A stretch of 42,548 nucleotides of DNA from a virus (Duplodnaviria; Heunggongvirae; Uroviricota; Caudoviricetes), in the IMG/VR virus record IMGVR_UViG_2671180275_000010. One strand, given 5' to 3'. Numbering within the stretch: the first letter of the stretch is position 1; every line of letters starts with the position of its first letter. The position numbers and the translations under genes are program-made. The notes below the pieces were generated by a model that saw only the letters and a list, made by a program, of their open reading frames with translations, made no database searches and was not told where the DNA came from. Below, piece after piece: positions 6,052-20,483 of the stretch.

Positions 6052-6876
6052 TCAGGCGGTGAAAGTACCAATAAAGGTTTCTACTTTGCTGTCTTTGAAT
6101 TTCTCAACAAGCAGATCACGAAATTCGTTAGCCATTTCTTCCTGCACTGCTTCCAGCTGAATAATGCGCAGAACCAGTACAGGACGATCGCCAGTGATAA
6201 TGCTGAGGCGTAATTTAAATGGACGTTCTTTCAGACCTTCAAACGGAACGCATTTAAATTCAAATGCCACTGGCATAATATCTTTGGTCTTCGCTTCGAC
6301 AGACTCCATCAGGGAGCGTTTGCCGCTGAAGTCATTATCTTCAAAATCAGCGGTCTGGTTTGCTTCAATCGTGATTTTACGGACCGCCGCAGCCGCTTTT
6401 GTTGCCTGAATAGCGTCACCATTAGCATCAAAGCCCACAAGGTAGTCGGACCAGTCTTCAATCCATTCTGCCAGTGACTTCTGGGAGTTACGCTCGCCGT
6501 TAACAGACAACAGGGCAGAGAACGGTGCTGTCTTTTTCAGTTTGAGAGTGGCGGTGTTATCTGCGTGACCTGGTTCATCAATAGTACCCAGGTTAAGCAC
6601 ACTGACTGCTCGCATATTATCGGCATCGATAAATCAGCGGGTGCCTTCATCTGCAAGATCTTTAGAATAACGGGTAAAGTCATCGATGCTGGCAGTGGAA
6701 AGCGCACCACGGAAACGGAAGCGATTTAAATTAAATTTTTCCAGATCATGAATGCGGAAATTCTCAGGCAATGCCACAGCATCGGCACCAATCTTACTGA
6801 TAATTTCATTAACACCCTGAGCAGAAATAAGGGAATGAATTTGATTAATTGCGGTTGCGTCTAAGTTCTGAGACAT
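6052..6876 (-). pseudogene. yfdQ-like (DUF2303-type) gene interrupted by a single in-frame stop codon (track ORFs 6634..6876 and 6052..6615 share one frame)
   Basis: 80-aa and 187-aa ORFs are in the same frame, separated by one stop (read as TGA at 6634-6636) plus 6 sense codons; combined 274 codons equals the length I recall for E. coli CPS-53 YfdQ. Confidence 0.45.
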
Positions 6877-9952: not shown

Positions 9953-10037
9953 TTCTGCAATTCCGGGACGTTACACTGTTCCGGCACCTTATAAAGCGGG
10001 TGCCGGGCGTGGAAACCCGAAATTCAATATAGAGCAC

Positions 10038-10060
10038 AACCGCGCTCATGCGGTTTTTTC
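10038..10060 (+). terminator. Intrinsic terminator-like hairpin (AACCGC-GCTCAT-GCGGTT + TTTTTT)
   Basis: 6-bp GC-rich stem followed by a 6-T run; lies inside the implausible N-terminal extension of the Rha ORF. Confidence 0.4.
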
Positions 10061-10229
10061 GTGTCATGAGCATCGTTACGCCCAAATTATGGTGGGGCGT
10101 GCAGGGCCAACTTCGGTTGGGCCGGGTTCTATGTTGACCGGTATTTCCACCCCTGTACGTCTCACCACCTATATGGTCGTGGAAAGCCTTGGTGGTGAGT
10201 TCATTGAATTCAACATAGGGGCTGTCACC

Positions 10230-15649: not shown

Positions 15650-16639
15650 TTGAGAGCACTACTGACCCCTGAAATTGCCCCGCGTATGGGGATCGTATTG
15701 TTCAGGCCAGGTTCAGAGCTGATGCCCCTGTTTATGCAGGGGCGTGTCCTGCTGGAGCCTGAGCCGGAGCGTTATTCATCTTTCGCCAGTGGTGCCGTTC
15801 CGGCGGCATCACAACCGCTGGCGGATGATCCTGCCGTTCGGGCCGTGTTCCGCAATGAGGCGGTGATCCGTCGTGCTGGTGGCGTGGAATGCCTTGAGAG
15901 CTGGTTACTTCGTGAAAAGGGCTGTCAGTGGCCTCATTCCGACTGGCACAGCGAGAACATGACCACAATGCGGCACGCGCCAGGCGCAATCCGTCTGTGC
16001 TGGCACTGTGACAATCTCCTCCGTGACCAGTTCACGGAACGGCTGGAATCAATGGCAACGGATAACTGTGCCCGCTGGGTGTTGTCTGTTGTGCGCCGTG
16101 ATCTTGGTTTTGATGACAGTCACGTTGTGACAATGCCGGAACTGTGCTGGTGGCTGGTTCGTAATGACCTGGCGGATGCCTTACCGGAAAGTGCAGCCCG
16201 TAAGGTACTGAGATTACCGAAGACGGTTGTGCCGTCTGTCACCCGGGAAAGTGACCTTGTGCCTTCGGTTCCCGCCACCAGTATTATCCGGGATAAAGCG
16301 AAAAAGGTGCTGGCGCTGAAAGTGGATCCGGAGTCGCCGGAGTCTTTTATGTTACGCCCAAAACGTCGCCGCTGGGTTAATGAAAAGTACACGCGCTGGG
16401 TTAAGACGCAGCCGTGCGCATGTTGTGGAAAACCTGCTGATGATCCCCACCACCTGATAGGTCACGGTCAGGGCGGAATGGGTACAAAAGCGCATGACCT
16501 CTTTGTGTTGCCTTTGTGCAGAAAGCATCACGACGAGCTGCATGCGGATACCGTGGCATTTGAAGAGAAGTATGGCTCCCAGCTGGAGCTGATATTTCGT
16601 TTTATCGATCGCGCGCTGGCGATTGGTGTGCTGTCCTGA
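15650..16639 (+). CDS. DUF968-domain protein (YdfU-like) with C-terminal Cys/His-rich HNH-like cluster
   Basis: 329 aa; C-terminal CACCGKPADDPHHLIGHGQGGMGTKAHDLFVLPLCRKHHDELH; alternative start possible at Met13. Confidence 0.65.
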   Translation: MRALLTPEIAPRMGIVLFRPGSELMPLFMQGRVLLEPEPERYSSFASGAVPAASQPLADDPAVRAVFRNEAVIRRAGGVECLESWLLREKGCQWPHSDWHSENMTTMRHAPGAIRLCWHCDNLLRDQFTERLESMATDNCARWVLSVVRRDLGFDDSHVVTMPELCWWLVRNDLADALPESAARKVLRLPKTVVPSVTRESDLVPSVPATSIIRDKAKKVLALKVDPESPESFMLRPKRRRWVNEKYTRWVKTQPCACCGKPADDPHHLIGHGQGGMGTKAHDLFVLPLCRKHHDELHADTVAFEEKYGSQLELIFRFIDRALAIGVLS

Positions 16640-16656
16640 TTTTGTGGAGAAAGTTG

Positions 16657-17049
16657 ATGCGTGATATTCAGATGGTTCTCGAACGCTGGGGGGCATGGGC
16701 GGCAAGTGGTAACGCCGGGGTGGACTATTCTCCGATAGCTGCTGGATTTAAAGGCCTTTTACCATCCACCGCTAAACCTCGCCCGGCCTGCAGCGATGAT
16801 GACGGCCTTATCATCGAAAACTGCCTTACGCGCCTGAAGAAGAAAAAACCGGACGAGTATTCGCTGCTGGTAGCTCATTATCTGCTGCGCATATCAAAAA
16901 GGCAGATTGCCAGAACAAGAAAGAAGAGCGAAAAGGCAATACGAATTGAGATGCAGATTGCTGAAGGATTTATTGACGGATGTCTGTCGATGCTGGGTGT
17001 AAGGCTGGAGATGGACGACTGGCTGCCCAAAAAAGTAAAAAATGATTAG
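16657..17049 (+). CDS. Q: Late-gene antiterminator Q (QuuD/phage-82-type)
   Basis: MRDIQMVLERWGAWAA... N-terminus matches E. coli DLP12 QuuD as I recall it; located directly upstream of the late-regulatory region; track ORF starts at alternative codon 16642. Confidence 0.8.
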   Translation: MRDIQMVLERWGAWAASGNAGVDYSPIAAGFKGLLPSTAKPRPACSDDDGLIIENCLTRLKKKKPDEYSLLVAHYLLRISKRQIARTRKKSEKAIRIEMQIAEGFIDGCLSMLGVRLEMDDWLPKKVKND

Positions 17050-17107
17050 CGCGGTCCGCAAAAAGTATGTCAGTATGTTAAGAGTGGTTACTACGCCACA
17101 CAACTTA

Positions 17108-17132
17108 AACCCGCCGCCTGGCGGGTTTTTTA
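17108..17132 (+). terminator. Intrinsic terminator just downstream of Q
   Basis: AACCCGCC-GCCT-GGCGGGTT hairpin followed by TTTTTTAT. Confidence 0.6.
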
Positions 17133-17268
17133 TGACTGAAATCGCATCAGTACAGTAAACGTGCTGGTGGTGAATACCTGTCTTTCAGCTTGCTGGCTTT
17201 TTAGACAAGAGTTATTGGTATGTCACGTTAACCGGAAAAGGGAAAAAGACATGCTAAAACAGTAGGAT

Positions 17269-17448
17269 ATGACAGAAACCGCCAGAGTGGTGTTTAATGA
17301 ATTAAGCGTCACCTACCCGGCGACAGTCGGGGAGATTGCGCAGAATACTTACCTTTCACGCGAACGCTGCCAGTTAATACTGACCCAGCTGGTTATGGCG
17401 GGTCTGGCAGACTATCAGTTCGGTTGTTACAGACGCCTTCCGCAGTGA
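17269..17448 (+). CDS. Small hypothetical protein (59 aa, winged-helix-like)
   Basis: ATG preceded by AGGA; ends inside a terminator hairpin; not in ORF track (under 60 aa); MTETARVVFNELSVTYPATVGEIAQNTYLSRERCQLILTQLVMAGLADYQFGCYRRLPQ. Confidence 0.35.
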   Translation: MTETARVVFNELSVTYPATVGEIAQNTYLSRERCQLILTQLVMAGLADYQFGCYRRLPQ

Positions 17449-17460
17449 AGGCTTTTTTAT
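17435..17460 (+). terminator. Intrinsic terminator (GCCTTC-CGCAGT-GAAGGC + TTTTTTATTT)
   Basis: Perfect 6-bp stem and long T-run directly after the small ORF. Confidence 0.6.
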
Positions 17461-17570
17461 TTGTGGTAAATGGGCGGCTGGTGGGTGTGGTGGTTGTTGC
17501 TTTCCCGTTGCTGAAAAAGAAAGCATCAGGCGATTAGCAGGGTATCAGTTACCCGTTGAAATTTTTAAAT

Positions 17571-17805
17571 ACCTCACAATTCAGGCGGTTGACTGTTGTC
17601 TGGTTTGCGGGGAGTTTGTTAAAAGAAACTGGCATGGTGAATCCCCCTGTGCGGAGGGGCAATCAGCAACTGGTGTTTTGTCACCGACCCTTATCCTTTC
17701 TGTGCGGGTTCAGGTGCTGATACTGAACTCACCGGGAGGCACCCGGCACCATGCAATGGCACATAGCGCCACTCTCCAGCCCCTCTCCGGAGGGGCTTTT
17801 CTGTG
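17571..17805 (+). repeat. Late promoter/leader/terminator-like unit, copy 1 (TTGACT -35-like motif, conserved hairpins, terminal GCCCCTC-TCCG-GAGGGGC hairpin + U-tract)
   Basis: Shares three conserved blocks with copy 2, in the same order and spacing. Confidence 0.5.
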
Positions 17806-17991
17806 CCGGATACATCACAGTTTCTGGAACCTTGGGTACTACAGTATCAGTCAGGGTGCTATATTTTCAGATGTGATGAAAGCCTGTCAGCAGGCAGGGC
17901 GTATCGGAAATGACCCAGTAGAGAAAACGTTGACTCAGATACCGGTGCTGAGTTACCGGGAAACCGGCATCACATGACCGCTATCCTTCCA

Positions 17992-18018
17992 GGCCCATCC
18001 GCTCCGGTGGGCCTTTTT
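17992..18018 (+). terminator. Intrinsic terminator (GGCCCA-N10-TGGGCC + TTTTT)
   Basis: Hairpin with T-run between the two repeat units. Confidence 0.5.
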
Positions 18019-18055
18019 ACTGCAGAAAACAGGTTCCCCGTTAAATGCTATGTTG

Positions 18056-18292
18056 CTCACAATTCAGTAAGTTGACAGTTGCCTGTCAGACTGGGCATTT
18101 GTTAAAAAAATTTCGCATGGTGAATCCCCCTGAGCGGAGGGGCGACTGGTGACGGTATAATCTCTGATTATCAAAACGAGAATGACGCGGGTTTAGTGGC
18201 ACCGGGCTGAACTCACCGGGAGGCACCCGGCACCATGTGCATGATGATACAGATACGCGGCTTTAGCCCCTCTCCGGAGGGGCTTTCTTGTG
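18056..18292 (+). repeat. Late promoter/leader/terminator-like unit, copy 2 (TTGACA motif, internal TATAAT at about 18156, terminal GCCCCTC-TCCG-GAGGGGC hairpin)
   Basis: Paralogous to copy 1; immediately upstream of nanS-p and the lysis genes. Confidence 0.5.
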
Positions 18293-18295
18293 GGC

Positions 18296-18321
18296 AAAAA
18301 AAAGCCCGAGTGGGTTCGGGC
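18296..18321 (-). terminator. Minus-strand intrinsic terminator (GCCCGA-GTGGGT-TCGGGC followed by 8 U on the minus strand)
   Basis: Hairpin preceded on the plus strand by AAAAAAAA. Confidence 0.45.
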
Positions 18322-18376
18322 AACAGCATGAGATATACATTTTTATAATCGAATGGATTTTAACCAGAATTCATAA

Positions 18377-18401
18377 GGCTGCGCAACTGCGCGGCCTTTT
18401 T
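18377..18401 (+). terminator. Terminator-like hairpin + T-run upstream of nanS-p
   Basis: GGCTGCGCAACTGCGCGGCC near-palindrome followed by TTTTTCG. Confidence 0.4.
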
Positions 18402-18503
18402 CGTATTGCGGGCTGTAGTCTTCCTCCTGCAATTGTCCTGTAACTTCCGGACTTCAGCTCGCTCCTTATCTGACTCACAACATTATCCCGACCGGGAGGA
18501 TTC

Positions 18504-20483
18504 ATGACATTTAAACACTACGATGTGGTCAGGGCGGCGTCGCCGTCAGACCTTGCGGAGCGACTGACTCAAAAACTGAAGGAGGGGTGGCAGCCATTTG
18601 GCAGCCCGGTGGCCATCACGCCTTATACCCTGATGCAGGCCATTGCGGCGGAAGGTGATGTCACCACACCTGTGGTGGTGAAGCCGTCGGATGGAGAAGG
18701 CACAGTTATCAGCACCACCAGCGAACCGGAGTATTACTTTGTTGTTGTTCTGGCGGGGCAGTCAAACTCAATGTCTTTTGGTGAAGGGCTGCCGCTGCCG
18801 GAGACATATGACCGTCCGGACCCGCGTATTAAACAGCTGGCGCGTCGCAGTACGGTGACGCCGGGTGGTGCCGCCTGTAAATATAACGACATCATTCCGG
18901 CAGACCACTGTCTGCATGATGTGCAGGATATGAGTAACCTGAATCATCCTCATGCAGACCTGAGTAAGGGACAGTACGGTTGTGTGGGGCATGCTCTGCA
19001 TGTTGCCAAAAAGCTGCTGCCGTTTATGCCTGCGAATGCGGGTATCCTTCTTGTTCCATGTGGCCGTGGCGATTCGGGATTTACTGCGGGAGTCGAGGGG
19101 GCGTTTAACGAAGCGTCGGGAGCGACCGCAGGCTCGTCCCTGTGGGGGGCGGATAAACCGCTGTATCATGACCTGGTCAGCAGAACCCGTGCGGCCCTGA
19201 AGAAAAATCCGAAGAACGTGCTGTTATCAGTGATTTGGATGCAGGGAGAAAAAGATGTCAGTTCGGGGAGACATGCAGAACACAATGCGCTTTTCCTTGC
19301 CATGGTAAATCAGTTCCGTACGGAACTGGCAGATGTGGCAGAGCAGTGTACTGGCGGGACAACGGCCAGCGTCCCGTGGATTTGCGGTGATACCACGTAC
19401 TACTGGAAGGAAAGGTATGCAGCGCCGTATGAGGCGGTTTACGGTGGGTATAAAGGCAAAGCTGCGCAGAATATTCACTTTGTGCCGTTGATGACGGATG
19501 AGCATGGTGTGAATGTGCCGACAAACGAGCCGTCAGAAGATCCGGACATTATCCCGGCGGGATACTATGGCGCTGCGTCACGCACTGCCAGTAACTGGAC
19601 GTCAGCCGATCGTAAAACGCACTTCAGTTCATGGGCGCGAAGAGGCCTTGTTTCAGACCGCCTGGCAGGTGCCATTTTGCAGTACGCCGGGCGGACATTA
19701 TCGTTCCTTACCGGGCAGAGCGCATCGCTGTCGGGTGGTACAACTCCTGTCAGTCCGGGGACACCGGATGTTGAGAAACCGCAGGATGGCGGTGTTGCTG
19801 GTACTGGTCATGATGAGGCCGTGAGCAGTACCAGGACGGTGGCTGAATATGATGCGAACAGTGGAAATGGTGTATGGACAGAGCAGCAGTGGGGGGCTGC
19901 CGGTGGCAAAGGCACTGTGACTGATGACGGTGGACGGAAAGCGCTGCGACTGGAAAAACAGCCCGGTAAACTGACGTCCTGGAAAATGTTCCGTACTGTT
20001 GCAGTGGAGGAGGCAAAAAATCTTCTCAGCAAGGGGGGTGAAATTGCCGTACGGTTCAAAATTCCGGATGGAAGCGAACTGGTGAACGGACAGTTTGTCT
20101 TTGGTCTCTACTGGCCGGTGTCGCAGTGGGCGTCAGGCGCGGCAGCAAACAGTATGCTGGCATCATTCTTCCTTCAGACGGATGCATCAAATCTGAATCT
20201 TATGCACCACAAGGGCACGTCGAATGCACAACTGGGTACATTTGGTGCGTTTGACCATAACTGGCATACGGTTGTTTTCCGCTTTGCGGGAAATAACAGC
20301 GAAAGAGTCGTTCCGGTGATTGATGGTACAGAGCAGACGGCGTTTGACCTTGTGATGTGGACAAATGATGGCTTTACAGCAGATACGCTGACGCTGACAG
20401 ATATCACGGGGGCAAAAGCGACGTATCCTGTCCTGCTTGATACGGTCACAGTCAAAGTTAACGAAAGCCGGGCATCATCATAA
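18504..20483 (+). CDS. nanS-p: NanS-p-type phage sialate O-acetylesterase (DUF1737 N-terminal domain + SGNH/SASA esterase domain + C-terminal carbohydrate-binding-like region)
   Basis: 659 aa; N-terminal MTFKHYDVVRAASPSDLAERLTQKLKEGWQPFGSPVA (DUF1737-like); esterase block YYFVVVLAGQSNSMSFGEG; GGGAGG SD; occupies the Q-to-lysis moron position as in EHEC Stx prophages. Confidence 0.85.
   Translation: MTFKHYDVVRAASPSDLAERLTQKLKEGWQPFGSPVAITPYTLMQAIAAEGDVTTPVVVKPSDGEGTVISTTSEPEYYFVVVLAGQSNSMSFGEGLPLPETYDRPDPRIKQLARRSTVTPGGAACKYNDIIPADHCLHDVQDMSNLNHPHADLSKGQYGCVGHALHVAKKLLPFMPANAGILLVPCGRGDSGFTAGVEGAFNEASGATAGSSLWGADKPLYHDLVSRTRAALKKNPKNVLLSVIWMQGEKDVSSGRHAEHNALFLAMVNQFRTELADVAEQCTGGTTASVPWICGDTTYYWKERYAAPYEAVYGGYKGKAAQNIHFVPLMTDEHGVNVPTNEPSEDPDIIPAGYYGAASRTASNWTSADRKTHFSSWARRGLVSDRLAGAILQYAGRTLSFLTGQSASLSGGTTPVSPGTPDVEKPQDGGVAGTGHDEAVSSTRTVAEYDANSGNGVWTEQQWGAAGGKGTVTDDGGRKALRLEKQPGKLTSWKMFRTVAVEEAKNLLSKGGEIAVRFKIPDGSELVNGQFVFGLYWPVSQWASGAAANSMLASFFLQTDASNLNLMHHKGTSNAQLGTFGAFDHNWHTVVFRFAGNNSERVVPVIDGTEQTAFDLVMWTNDGFTADTLTLTDITGAKATYPVLLDTVTVKVNESRASS

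Follow-up and report, generated by a model that had tools for sequence, protein, structure and literature searches.

Tandem small RNA genes of the STnc100 family between Q and nanS-p in a lambdoid prophage

EDL933 holds 11 copies of the small RNA (sRNA) STnc100, which are transcribed without induction and one of which was confirmed by Northern blot (PMC5331693). A copy is also located 75 nt downstream of the Shiga toxin (Stx) operon stx2 (PMC12370729). In the Sakai prophage Sp5, the convergent sRNAs EcOnc02 (= AsxR) and EcOnc27 lie 3' of stx2B at the moron insertion site, an organisation that recurs in seven other Sakai prophages, and association of EcOnc sRNAs with Hfq was demonstrated by cross-linking and analysis of cDNAs (Hfq CRAC; Tree et al. 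2014, PMC4104026). STnc100 has further been tied to PasD1 and PasD2 of enteropathogenic Escherichia coli (EPEC), where pasD2 is found upstream of a sialate esterase gene; the PasA and PasD copies are distal rather than tandem (Pas preprint, bioRxiv 10.64898/2026.05.13.724894). Both PasD RNAs were discovered by sequencing of ligated, interacting RNAs (RIL-seq) on Hfq, were confirmed by Northern blot and have many trans partners (PMC8550237). Here we analyse the 1454-bp interval between the Q antiterminator gene and nanS-p (positions 17050-18503) in the IMG/VR virus record IMGVR_UViG_2671180275_000010 (Caudoviricetes), whose whole stretch of 42,548 nt is called the window, and describe a head-to-tail array of STnc100-family genes in it.

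The two paralogous units of about 240 bp reported in a preliminary description of the sequence were readily recovered. Direct repeats connect 17573-17660 with 18056-18143 (80%, 88 nt), 17723-17753 with 18207-18237 (100%, 31 nt) and 17778-17805 with 18265-18292 (93%, 28 nt, including an identical 20-nt hairpin), and over the predicted RNAs the units are 71% identical. The TTGAC(T/A) motif shared by both (TTGACT at 17589-17594, TTGACA at 18072-18077), the identical terminal hairpin and the perfect TATAAT in copy 2 only (18156-18161) were likewise as reported. Both units matched the Rfam family STnc100 (RF02076, gathering threshold 47 bits) over the full model (positions 1-206), with 141.4 bits (E 1e-32) for unit 1 at 17603-17808 and 165.5 bits (E 1e-38) for unit 2 at 18086-18295. 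A middle match at 17847-18020 (30.1 bits, E 6e-4) remained below the threshold. Judged by their sequence, units 1 and 2 are STnc100-family (EcOnc27/PasD) sRNA genes and not pR'-qut-tR' modules. The predicted genes are:

17632..17803, plus strand: STnc100-family sRNA 1, about 172 nt, with the closing helix GCAUGGUG/CACCAUGC, four internal hairpins, a linker (17756-17777) and a terminator (17778-17803)
RNA about 17870-18019, plus strand: diverged third paralog, about 150 nt, with a terminator (17991-18019); weak STnc100 match, shared fold
18115..18288, plus strand: STnc100-family sRNA 2, about 174 nt, with a variable hairpin and a linker (18238-18264) unlike those of sRNA 1, and a terminator

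The predicted starts are spaced by 238 and 245 nt, giving a head-to-tail array of three times about 240 bp. The minimum free energy (MFE) fold of sRNA 1 had -73.4 kcal/mol (z -3.6), and unit 1, unit 2, the Sp5 copy and PasD2 all gave a common MFE architecture, made up of the closing helix GCAUGGUG/CACCAUGC, a 5' hairpin, a variable hairpin, a GGGUU..AACUC hairpin and a CCGGG-AGGCA-CCCGG hairpin. On the 3' side of this scaffold a linker of 15-35 nt, differing between copies, precedes the terminator. The region of unit 2 (18057-18595) is 84% identical to the Sp5 copy downstream of stx2B. The middle unit (17870-18019) folds into the same architecture, with all hairpin sequences different and the closing helix changed on both strands to AUGUGAUG/CAUCACAU; because the fold is kept with a compensated closing helix, we regard it as a diverged third gene and not as debris. 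Its identity to units 1 and 2 amounts to 56-58%, and "diverged relative of STnc100" describes it best, as it does PasD (PasD2 scores 41 bits on the STnc100 model). An identification of the middle unit with PasD was rejected, since the two showed no BLAST match and the identity to PasD2 is 53%. The preliminary description, which spoke of a tandemly duplicated promoter-leader-terminator unit, had thus caught the cassette-like look of the region, but it missed the third unit, and the units are sRNA genes.

For comparison across the family, the exact 22-mer CACCGGGAGGCACCCGGCACCA of the inner 3' hairpin of the units was scanned in species-representative genomes, which returned 110 stretches, nearly all from Enterobacteriaceae. 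As the 22-mer by which the loci were chosen covers the closing helix and the 3' hairpin, the covariation analysis with mafft and RNAalifold is uninformative there, and CG/GC/UA variation was seen in the 5' hairpin only; structural support comes from the Rfam scores and from the compensated closing helix found in the middle unit. Three other functions were considered for the scaffold and rejected: a Put-like processive antitermination RNA (in lysogens, RNAs of the family are found as discrete, terminated species), an ops/RfaH-like element in the 5' hairpin loop (the position of GCGGNGG varies) and a CsrA decoy (GGA is not conserved in the 5' hairpin). Since the scaffold is conserved and the linkers differ, the three RNAs may have different targets; the predicted seed of PasD lies within the corresponding linker (PMC8550237).

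The 741-bp array was present with a coverage of at least 80% in 347 of 5426 complete E. coli genomes (about 6%), and the full 1454-bp interval in 19 of them. Strain JNEC-KY203 carries this prophage with 99.9% identity. The middle unit was detected in 673 of the same 5426 (about 12%), in two sequence variants and including the type strain and the extraintestinal and avian pathogenic (ExPEC/APEC) strains S88 and BEN2908. Five phage records carry the middle unit and hence the array, among them PhiR5_2, which forms plaques and was grown on K-12. Copies of the unit-2 type were found at 359 places in 353 phage records, mostly of Stx phages and with one copy per record in nearly all. The possibility that the duplication is an assembly artefact or a chance repeat, the former being a concern of the preliminary description itself, is practically negligible, given an array in 347 independent complete genomes and five phage records, units whose 71% identity would let them neither collapse nor expand in assembly, and Rfam E-values of 1e-32 and 1e-38. 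Arrays in other genera, with a period of about 220-250 bp, include three tandem STnc100 copies in Superficieibacter electus (locus L029, 6323-7018, period about 250 bp), two in Enterobacter quasiroggenkampii (L025, 3418-3847) and a further tandem array in L107 (4045-4589). The tandem arrangement is a recurring trait of the STnc100 family and not peculiar to this prophage, and it seems not to have been pointed out before. At two loci (L033, 6655-6909; L105, around 1025) an STnc100 copy starts within about 10-60 nt of the 3' end of a tRNA gene and hence at the border of an integrated element.

As reference for the 5' ends of the units served PasD2, with estimated ends at 741157-741328 in E2348/69 (172 nt; table S6, PMC8550237). 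PasD2 begins with GCAUGGUGAAU, 4 nt ahead of a GGTGAAT block, and its promoter reads TTGACT-17-TTAAAA. The alignment of the family was anchored on the independently conserved 5' block GGTGAATCCCCCU..GCGG.GGGGC; in most of the approximately 110 copies sigma-70 elements were visible, with a -35 (often TTGACN) 37-40 nt and a -10 10-15 nt ahead of GGTGAAT. By comparison with the family and PasD2, the units are predicted to start about 4 nt ahead of GGTGAAT, behind the following elements:

17573..17631, plus strand: upstream region of unit 1, block CTCACAATTCAG..TTGACT; predicted TTGTCT (17596-17601), 18-nt spacer, TGt-TAAAAG (17620-17625); start about 17632
17857-17865, plus strand: promoter of the middle unit, predicted extended -10 TGc-TATATT; start about 17870
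18056..18114, plus strand: upstream region of unit 2, block CTCACAATTCAG..TTGACA; predicted TTGCCT (18079-18084), 18-nt spacer, TGt-TAAAAA (18103-18108); start about 18115

Sequence elements of an own promoter, the GCAUGGUGAAU start, the terminator and an RNA of about 170 nt are therewith predicted at the positions they have in the family and in PasD2. The TTGAC(T/A) and TATAAT motifs, noted earlier in the units, do not fit a role as promoter elements: the former sits 7 nt upstream of the predicted -35 and is not kept in the copies of E. albertii, E. ruysiae and Shigella, in which TG.TAA.AA is kept, and the latter (18156-18161) falls at +42, within the variable hairpin of RNA 2.

Where late transcription starts was addressed from the Q gene onwards. 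The Q gene of the window is 91% identical in DNA to Q of Stx2a phages and starts with the ATG at 16658, the list of open reading frames (ORFs) beginning it at TTG 16642. The features from Q to the first hairpin are:

16658..17049, plus strand: Q antiterminator gene of the Q21/933W family (Pfam PF06530, E 3e-52; PHROG 79, anti-termination protein Q-like)
17050..17107, plus strand: putative PR' and initial transcribed region, by homology to Sp5 (-10 region about 17066-17079, start about 17083-17087)
17108..17131, plus strand: first intrinsic terminator after PR', candidate tR' (about +25 to +48; AAACCCGCC-GCCU-GGCGGGUUUUUU; -15.6 kcal/mol)

In Sp5 the PR' start, mapped by differential RNA sequencing (dRNA-seq), and the 3' end of tR', mapped by Term-seq, are 258 nt apart, and RNase E cleavage was placed at +173 of the PR' transcript, between GU and AUU (Sy et al., PMC7547250). 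Transferred to the sequence, the mapped start corresponds to L004:1846, within TAAGAGTGGTTAC, with TATCAT as -10. The alignment showed a block AAAAA..ATG.TAAGAGTGGTTAC...GCCAC.CA common to the window and Sp5. Window positions 17060-17131, covering the PR' block, the stretch to the first hairpin and the hairpin itself, are shared with Sp5, and homology ends thereafter; Stx2_EH2201 and PhiR5_1, which have the same Q allele as the window, also share the PR' region. The same hairpin occupies the same place in Sp5, PhiR5_1, Stx2_EH2201 and ABU 83972. In ABU 83972, homology to the window begins only at 17110; its Q belongs to PF03589 (lambda-type) and is followed by the promoter TTGATT-17-TAAATT-TGCTCT-AACGAT, which we take to be a lambda-like PR' and which is joined to the same hairpin. 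Because this promoter replaces exactly that stretch, the Q-specific promoter cassette would end just before the hairpin at 17108. This hairpin would be the first terminator met by PR' transcripts. With homology to a mapped PR' of the same Q family and a terminator directly behind, the late promoter is most likely located at 17050-17107. In E. coli 2018-166 (L002, 48-2439) two minus-strand genes (hypothetical and nucleoid-associated, about 2.4 kb) lie between Q and a PR'-like block AAGAGTGGTTAC, an insertion that parts Q from the presumed promoter.

The preliminary description had proposed that the units provide two Q-responsive start sites for the late operon, as duplicated cassettes of late promoter, Q-utilisation site and terminator. 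Each unit does combine a promoter-like region, a structured leader of about 170 nt and a terminator in the orientation of the late genes (lambda 6S RNA has 194 nt), and at about 20 loci of other genera a family member is found between a PF03589 Q and genes for a P21-type holin and lysozyme. It is also established that a by-product of PR'-tR' can turn into an sRNA (Sy et al., PMC7547250). However, the stretch homologous to the mapped PR' directly follows Q and is not part of the units, which begin at least 580 nt from Q, behind two terminators. The near-identical array (97.7%) is found behind a Q of family PF06530 in the window and of family PF03589 in ABU 83972, and members of the family follow three Q families with different binding sites: PF06530 in the window and Sp5, PF03589 in ABU 83972 and prophage PP4 of E2348/69, and PF06323 in PP2 of E2348/69. 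As the same array follows Q genes of unrelated families, the units would not be cognate Q-loading sites. The Sp5 unit is located downstream of stx2B, a long way from the mapped PR'/StxS; in E2348/69 two ORFs part Q from the RNA for both PasD1 (PP4) and PasD2 (PP2); and at the short-gap loci L035 and L025 a terminator still stands between Q and the RNA's own promoter. No pause hexamer (at least 4/6 matches to TATAAT, A at position 2, T at position 6) was found between +1 and +45 in unit 1 or the middle unit. The only one in unit 2 is the TATAAT at +42, unique to that unit, and the first ones in the Sp5 copy and PasD2 come at +38 and +29, so that no such element is conserved. The units thus show neither adjacency and specificity to a cognate Q nor an early pause element, and a role as Q-responsive starts appears highly improbable.

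The interval is rich in terminators. Direct reading and the ORF list gave no credible long ORF in 17050-18503, in agreement with what had been described; the longest frame has 99 aa, with a TTG start at 17678, and crosses the RNA units. A terminator scan of 16400-19200 counted 12 terminator-like sites against 3.1 +/- 1.9 in shuffles. RNA folding of 17050-18503 gave six plus-strand hairpin/U-tract sites and one on the minus strand, between -8.9 and -18.3 kcal/mol, where at least five and one had been noted before. The scanner missed the terminator at 17108-17131 because the A-U pairs of the hairpin consume the U-tract. In addition to that one, the sites are:

17435-17458, plus strand: terminator, -8.9 kcal/mol, U6, overlapping the end of the small ORF; found by scan and folding
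17778-17803, plus strand: terminator, -17.3 kcal/mol
17991-18019, plus strand: terminator, -16.3 kcal/mol
18265-18290, plus strand: terminator, -17.2 kcal/mol
18375-18403, plus strand: terminator, -18.3 kcal/mol, the last one on this strand ahead of nanS-p; identical hairpin in Sp5
18321-18304, minus strand: terminator followed by U8, -11.1 kcal/mol

The genes and the junction that complete the interval and its downstream border are:

17269..17448, plus strand: conserved small ORF, 59 aa here (PHROG 331, E 6.5e-33, unknown function)
17471..17537, plus strand: putative deletion scar, with a microhomology junction (17471-17488) and the 3' remnant of a DUF3927 gene to 17537
18504..20483, plus strand: nanS-p-type sialate O-acetyl esterase gene, 659 aa (Pfam DUF1737, SASA and DUF6645), the first late gene past the interval

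The counterpart of the last gene in relatives is annotated as a SASA family carbohydrate esterase. The small ORF, called wHTH-like in the preliminary description, had no Pfam match, and its AlphaFold model, with a pLDDT (predicted local distance difference test) of 58, is too uncertain to bear out such a fold. It is also present 3' of Q in Stx2_EH2201, ABU 83972 and PhiR5_1. In relatives it is longer, with the start corresponding to ATG 17251; in the window the fifth codon is TAG (17263-17265), which is CAG in PhiR5_1, and the remaining 59-aa frame from ATG 17269 has a poorly spaced ribosome-binding site. From its sequence, the small ORF may be inactivated in the window.

An Stx-phage-like layout without toxin or tRNA genes had been suggested for this region, and it was confirmed. 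No tRNA genes were found anywhere in the window, and tblastn with stx2A and stx2B gave no match anywhere in it (best E 0.74), so that the stxA and stxB of an Stx-converting prophage are lacking between PR' and nanS-p. In Sakai Sp5 the order is Q, tRNAs, stx2AB, STnc100 (208 bits), AsxR on the minus strand (88 bits) and nanS-p; in the Stx2a phage Stx2_EH2201 the same Q allele and small ORF as in the window are followed by a methylase, three tRNAs, stx2AB, STnc100 and nanS-p. In the comparison with ABU 83972 (locus L003), window 17110-17488 corresponds to L003 453-834 (95.6%) and window 17471-18600 to L003 2993-4121 (97.7%), the two alignments overlapping at the motif GCTGGTGG(C)GGGTGT. The 2.16 kb of ABU 83972 that are absent from the window encode a DNA methyltransferase, a tRNA-Ile, two tRNA-Arg, TerB and the 5' part, that is most, of the DUF3927 gene, of which the 3' 49 nt remain, ending at 17537. 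In view of this junction and of the same left boundary in Stx2_EH2201, the stx-less and tRNA-less state is best read as a microhomology deletion of cargo. Of the gain or loss of a moron proposed earlier for the locus, loss is accordingly supported. In PhiR5_1 a 100% identical unit 1 runs, from its terminator hairpin on, into the flank of unit 2, and about 487 bp are missing; as this fits recombination between the identical 20-nt hairpins, the copy number can change.

Between sRNA 2 and the last terminator, the interval carries a gene on the opposite strand:

18299..18351, minus strand: AsxR/AgvB-type anti-sRNA gene, 53 nt (Rfam AsxR RF02703, 63.0 bits; terminator 18321-18304 followed by U8), converging on sRNA 2

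Its score of 63.0 bits is exactly the gathering threshold of AsxR (63), and at the same site (18351-18299) AgvB (RF02702) scored 43.4 bits, below its threshold of 56. AsxR of Sp5 has the same position and orientation. In a Raoultella sp. prophage (L082, about 6520-6570) the sequence GGGCAAAAAAAAAGCCCGCATGG... directly follows the STnc100 terminator and mirrors a terminator of the AsxR/AgvB type; the convergent sRNA pair seems, by sequence, to be kept outside Escherichia. Two further Rfam matches above the gathering threshold were found in the early region of the window, isrK at 9984-10060 (plus strand, 61.6 bits) and, adjoining it, C4 antisense RNA at 10085-10172 (plus strand, 82.4 bits).

The region as a whole is an ordinary lambdoid late-leader/moron zone, the parts of which belong to described families. 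We consider it likely that the interval is the moron zone of a lambdoid late operon which lost its cargo and kept its STnc100-family sRNA genes, with PR' placed right after Q. The order after Q would be PR' and the first terminator (17050-17131), the small ORF with its terminator, the scar of the 2.16-kb deletion, three STnc100/PasD genes, the convergent AsxR/AgvB-type gene, one more terminator and nanS-p. Each sRNA gene would have its own sigma-70 promoter, with a weak -35 and a TG-extended -10, and would yield an RNA of about 150-175 nt, with a variable single-stranded linker behind the scaffold, ending at its own intrinsic terminator. For the lysogen, we infer that transcripts from PR' halt at the first terminator, that each sRNA is expressed from a promoter of its own and acts in trans with the help of Hfq, the differing linkers directing the RNAs to different targets, and that the succession of terminators prevents expression of nanS-p and the lysis genes. 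After induction, Q would load at PR' and the modified polymerase would pass every hairpin.

Several observations weigh against this interpretation. At 17089-17094 the window has TACTAC where the -10-like pause hexamer of Sp5 is TACATT (+7); the final T, which sigma normally needs in a -10-like hexamer, is absent, and PR' or Q loading may be altered in the window. The same hexamer is TACTTC in the plaque-forming PhiR5_1 and TACTTT in Stx2_EH2201. Units 1 and 2 end in short U-tracts (UUUUCUGUG and UUUCUUGUG), so that termination there may be leaky. The start sites of the units were deduced from homologs, and a generic promoter scan reported no plus-strand promoter in the interval; its rule demands that a hexamer end in T (position 6), as TAAAAG and TAAAAA do not, and we do not take the result as absence for that reason. 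The interpretation does not account for the conserved block CTCACAATTCAG...GTTGAC(T/A) upstream of the predicted -35 (17573-17595 and 18056-18078), which is present also upstream of the Sp5 copy. Finally, to judge from the loci described below, the family is not purely one of stand-alone sRNAs, being also a 5' leader of kdgM-type porin genes in Klebsiella, Enterobacter and Kosakonia. A TCTCACAACTC similar to the conserved upstream block occurs about 55 nt upstream of some Enterobacter copies.

At the porin loci an STnc100-family RNA (84-96 bits) immediately precedes the gene of a KdgM-family porin, behind which comes a gene for a periplasmic pectate lyase; a LuxR-type regulator is encoded divergently:

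L037, L046, L023, L071, L079, L009, L066: porin-leader loci on chromosomes of Klebsiella, Raoultella, Kosakonia, Enterobacter and Citrobacter

At 19 loci, always co-oriented, about 45 nt part the last RNA hairpin from the porin ATG, which makes the scaffold look like a 5' leader there. Together with a domain closed by a P1 helix, with multiple hairpins and a terminator-like hairpin immediately behind, and with a scaffold sequence strongly conserved across genera, these loci speak for a scaffold that is a cis-acting leader, either an attenuator or a protein- or ligand-responsive switch, controlling read-through into nanS-p or into porin and pectate lyase genes, the short RNAs being by-products. 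For the array, however, this is improbable: the first two units each precede another unit and not a gene, and the third is parted from nanS-p by the convergent sRNA gene and a strong terminator. A conserved alternative pairing between scaffold and terminator was not seen, the terminator stems of Sp5, PasD2 and the window being different; a metabolite switch ahead of holin and lysozyme genes would make little sense; and PasD is a discrete RNA found with Hfq and many trans partners. A broader, more tentative and on balance rather doubtful idea is that the STnc100 scaffold is a reusable RNA chassis, employed as leader of porin operons, as stand-alone gene in prophages and in tandem arrays of 2-3 copies with swapped linkers in several genera. 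Recombination at the terminator hairpin that the units share may then lengthen or shorten arrays, PhiR5_1 looking like a collapsed form. If so, the near-invariant scaffold would bind a conserved host factor, an array would deliver several specificities at once, and the middle unit would be the founder of a subfamily without annotation, carried by about 12% of the complete E. coli genomes.

Returning to the prophage sRNA genes, their recognition corrects the annotation of the locus, as the repeated "promoter-leader-terminator" units are not extra Q-loading sites and the late promoter would sit within 60 nt after Q. Standard Rfam thresholds miss the middle paralog, and the clean microhomology loss of cargo would provide a concrete case of moron loss at the site of the Stx toxin. 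Mildly new are the array of three genes with its unannotated middle paralog, the deletion scar and the use of the scaffold as a leader of kdgM-type porins; the current understanding of Q antitermination is unchanged.

Compared with the Q21-type cassette (Yin, Kaelber, Ebright 2019), the window has a PF06530 Q with a promoter region and a terminator directly behind it and late genes coming next; that cassette has a Q-binding element of two 8-bp direct repeats, and the window differs from Sp5 in its hexamer TACTAC, where Sp5 has the -10-like TACATT. StxS and lambda 6S are matched in the homologous PR' block and the first hairpin directly behind a Q of the same Pfam family, and the idea that short RNAs of the late region act as Hfq sRNAs is applicable here (PMC7547250). 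The 258-nt StxS body and its tR', however, are absent from the window, and the STnc100 units are another RNA, located elsewhere; StxS in Sp5 is not covered by any Rfam family. With AsxR and AgvB (Tree et al. 2014) the convergent gene shares the conserved 3' part of about 42 nt, the terminator GCCCGAACCCACUCGGGC-U8 and the location between STnc100 and nanS-p, but its variable 5' 19 nt depart at several positions (CGAUUAUAAAAAUGUAUAU vs CGAUUAUUAAAACGAGUAU), and because of this difference pairing to FnrS, the target of AsxR, is not assured. OmrA/OmrB and PrrF1/PrrF2 are tandem paralogous sRNA genes, mentioned also in the Pas preprint, and may resemble the array in being neighbouring paralogs of one orientation that each carry a promoter and a terminator of their own, with a conserved and a variable part; they belong to other families, and in the array a large 5' scaffold is what is conserved, with the variable part 3' of it. 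STnc100/EcOnc27 and PasD1/PasD2 (EcOnc13) share with units 1 and 2 the scaffold, the length of about 172 nt, the inferred start GCAUGGUGAAU, the terminator, the position upstream of the esterase gene and the convergent AsxR-type gene. What sets the window apart from these is that three such genes stand head to tail with a period of about 240 bp, each with a different linker and the middle one below the Rfam threshold.

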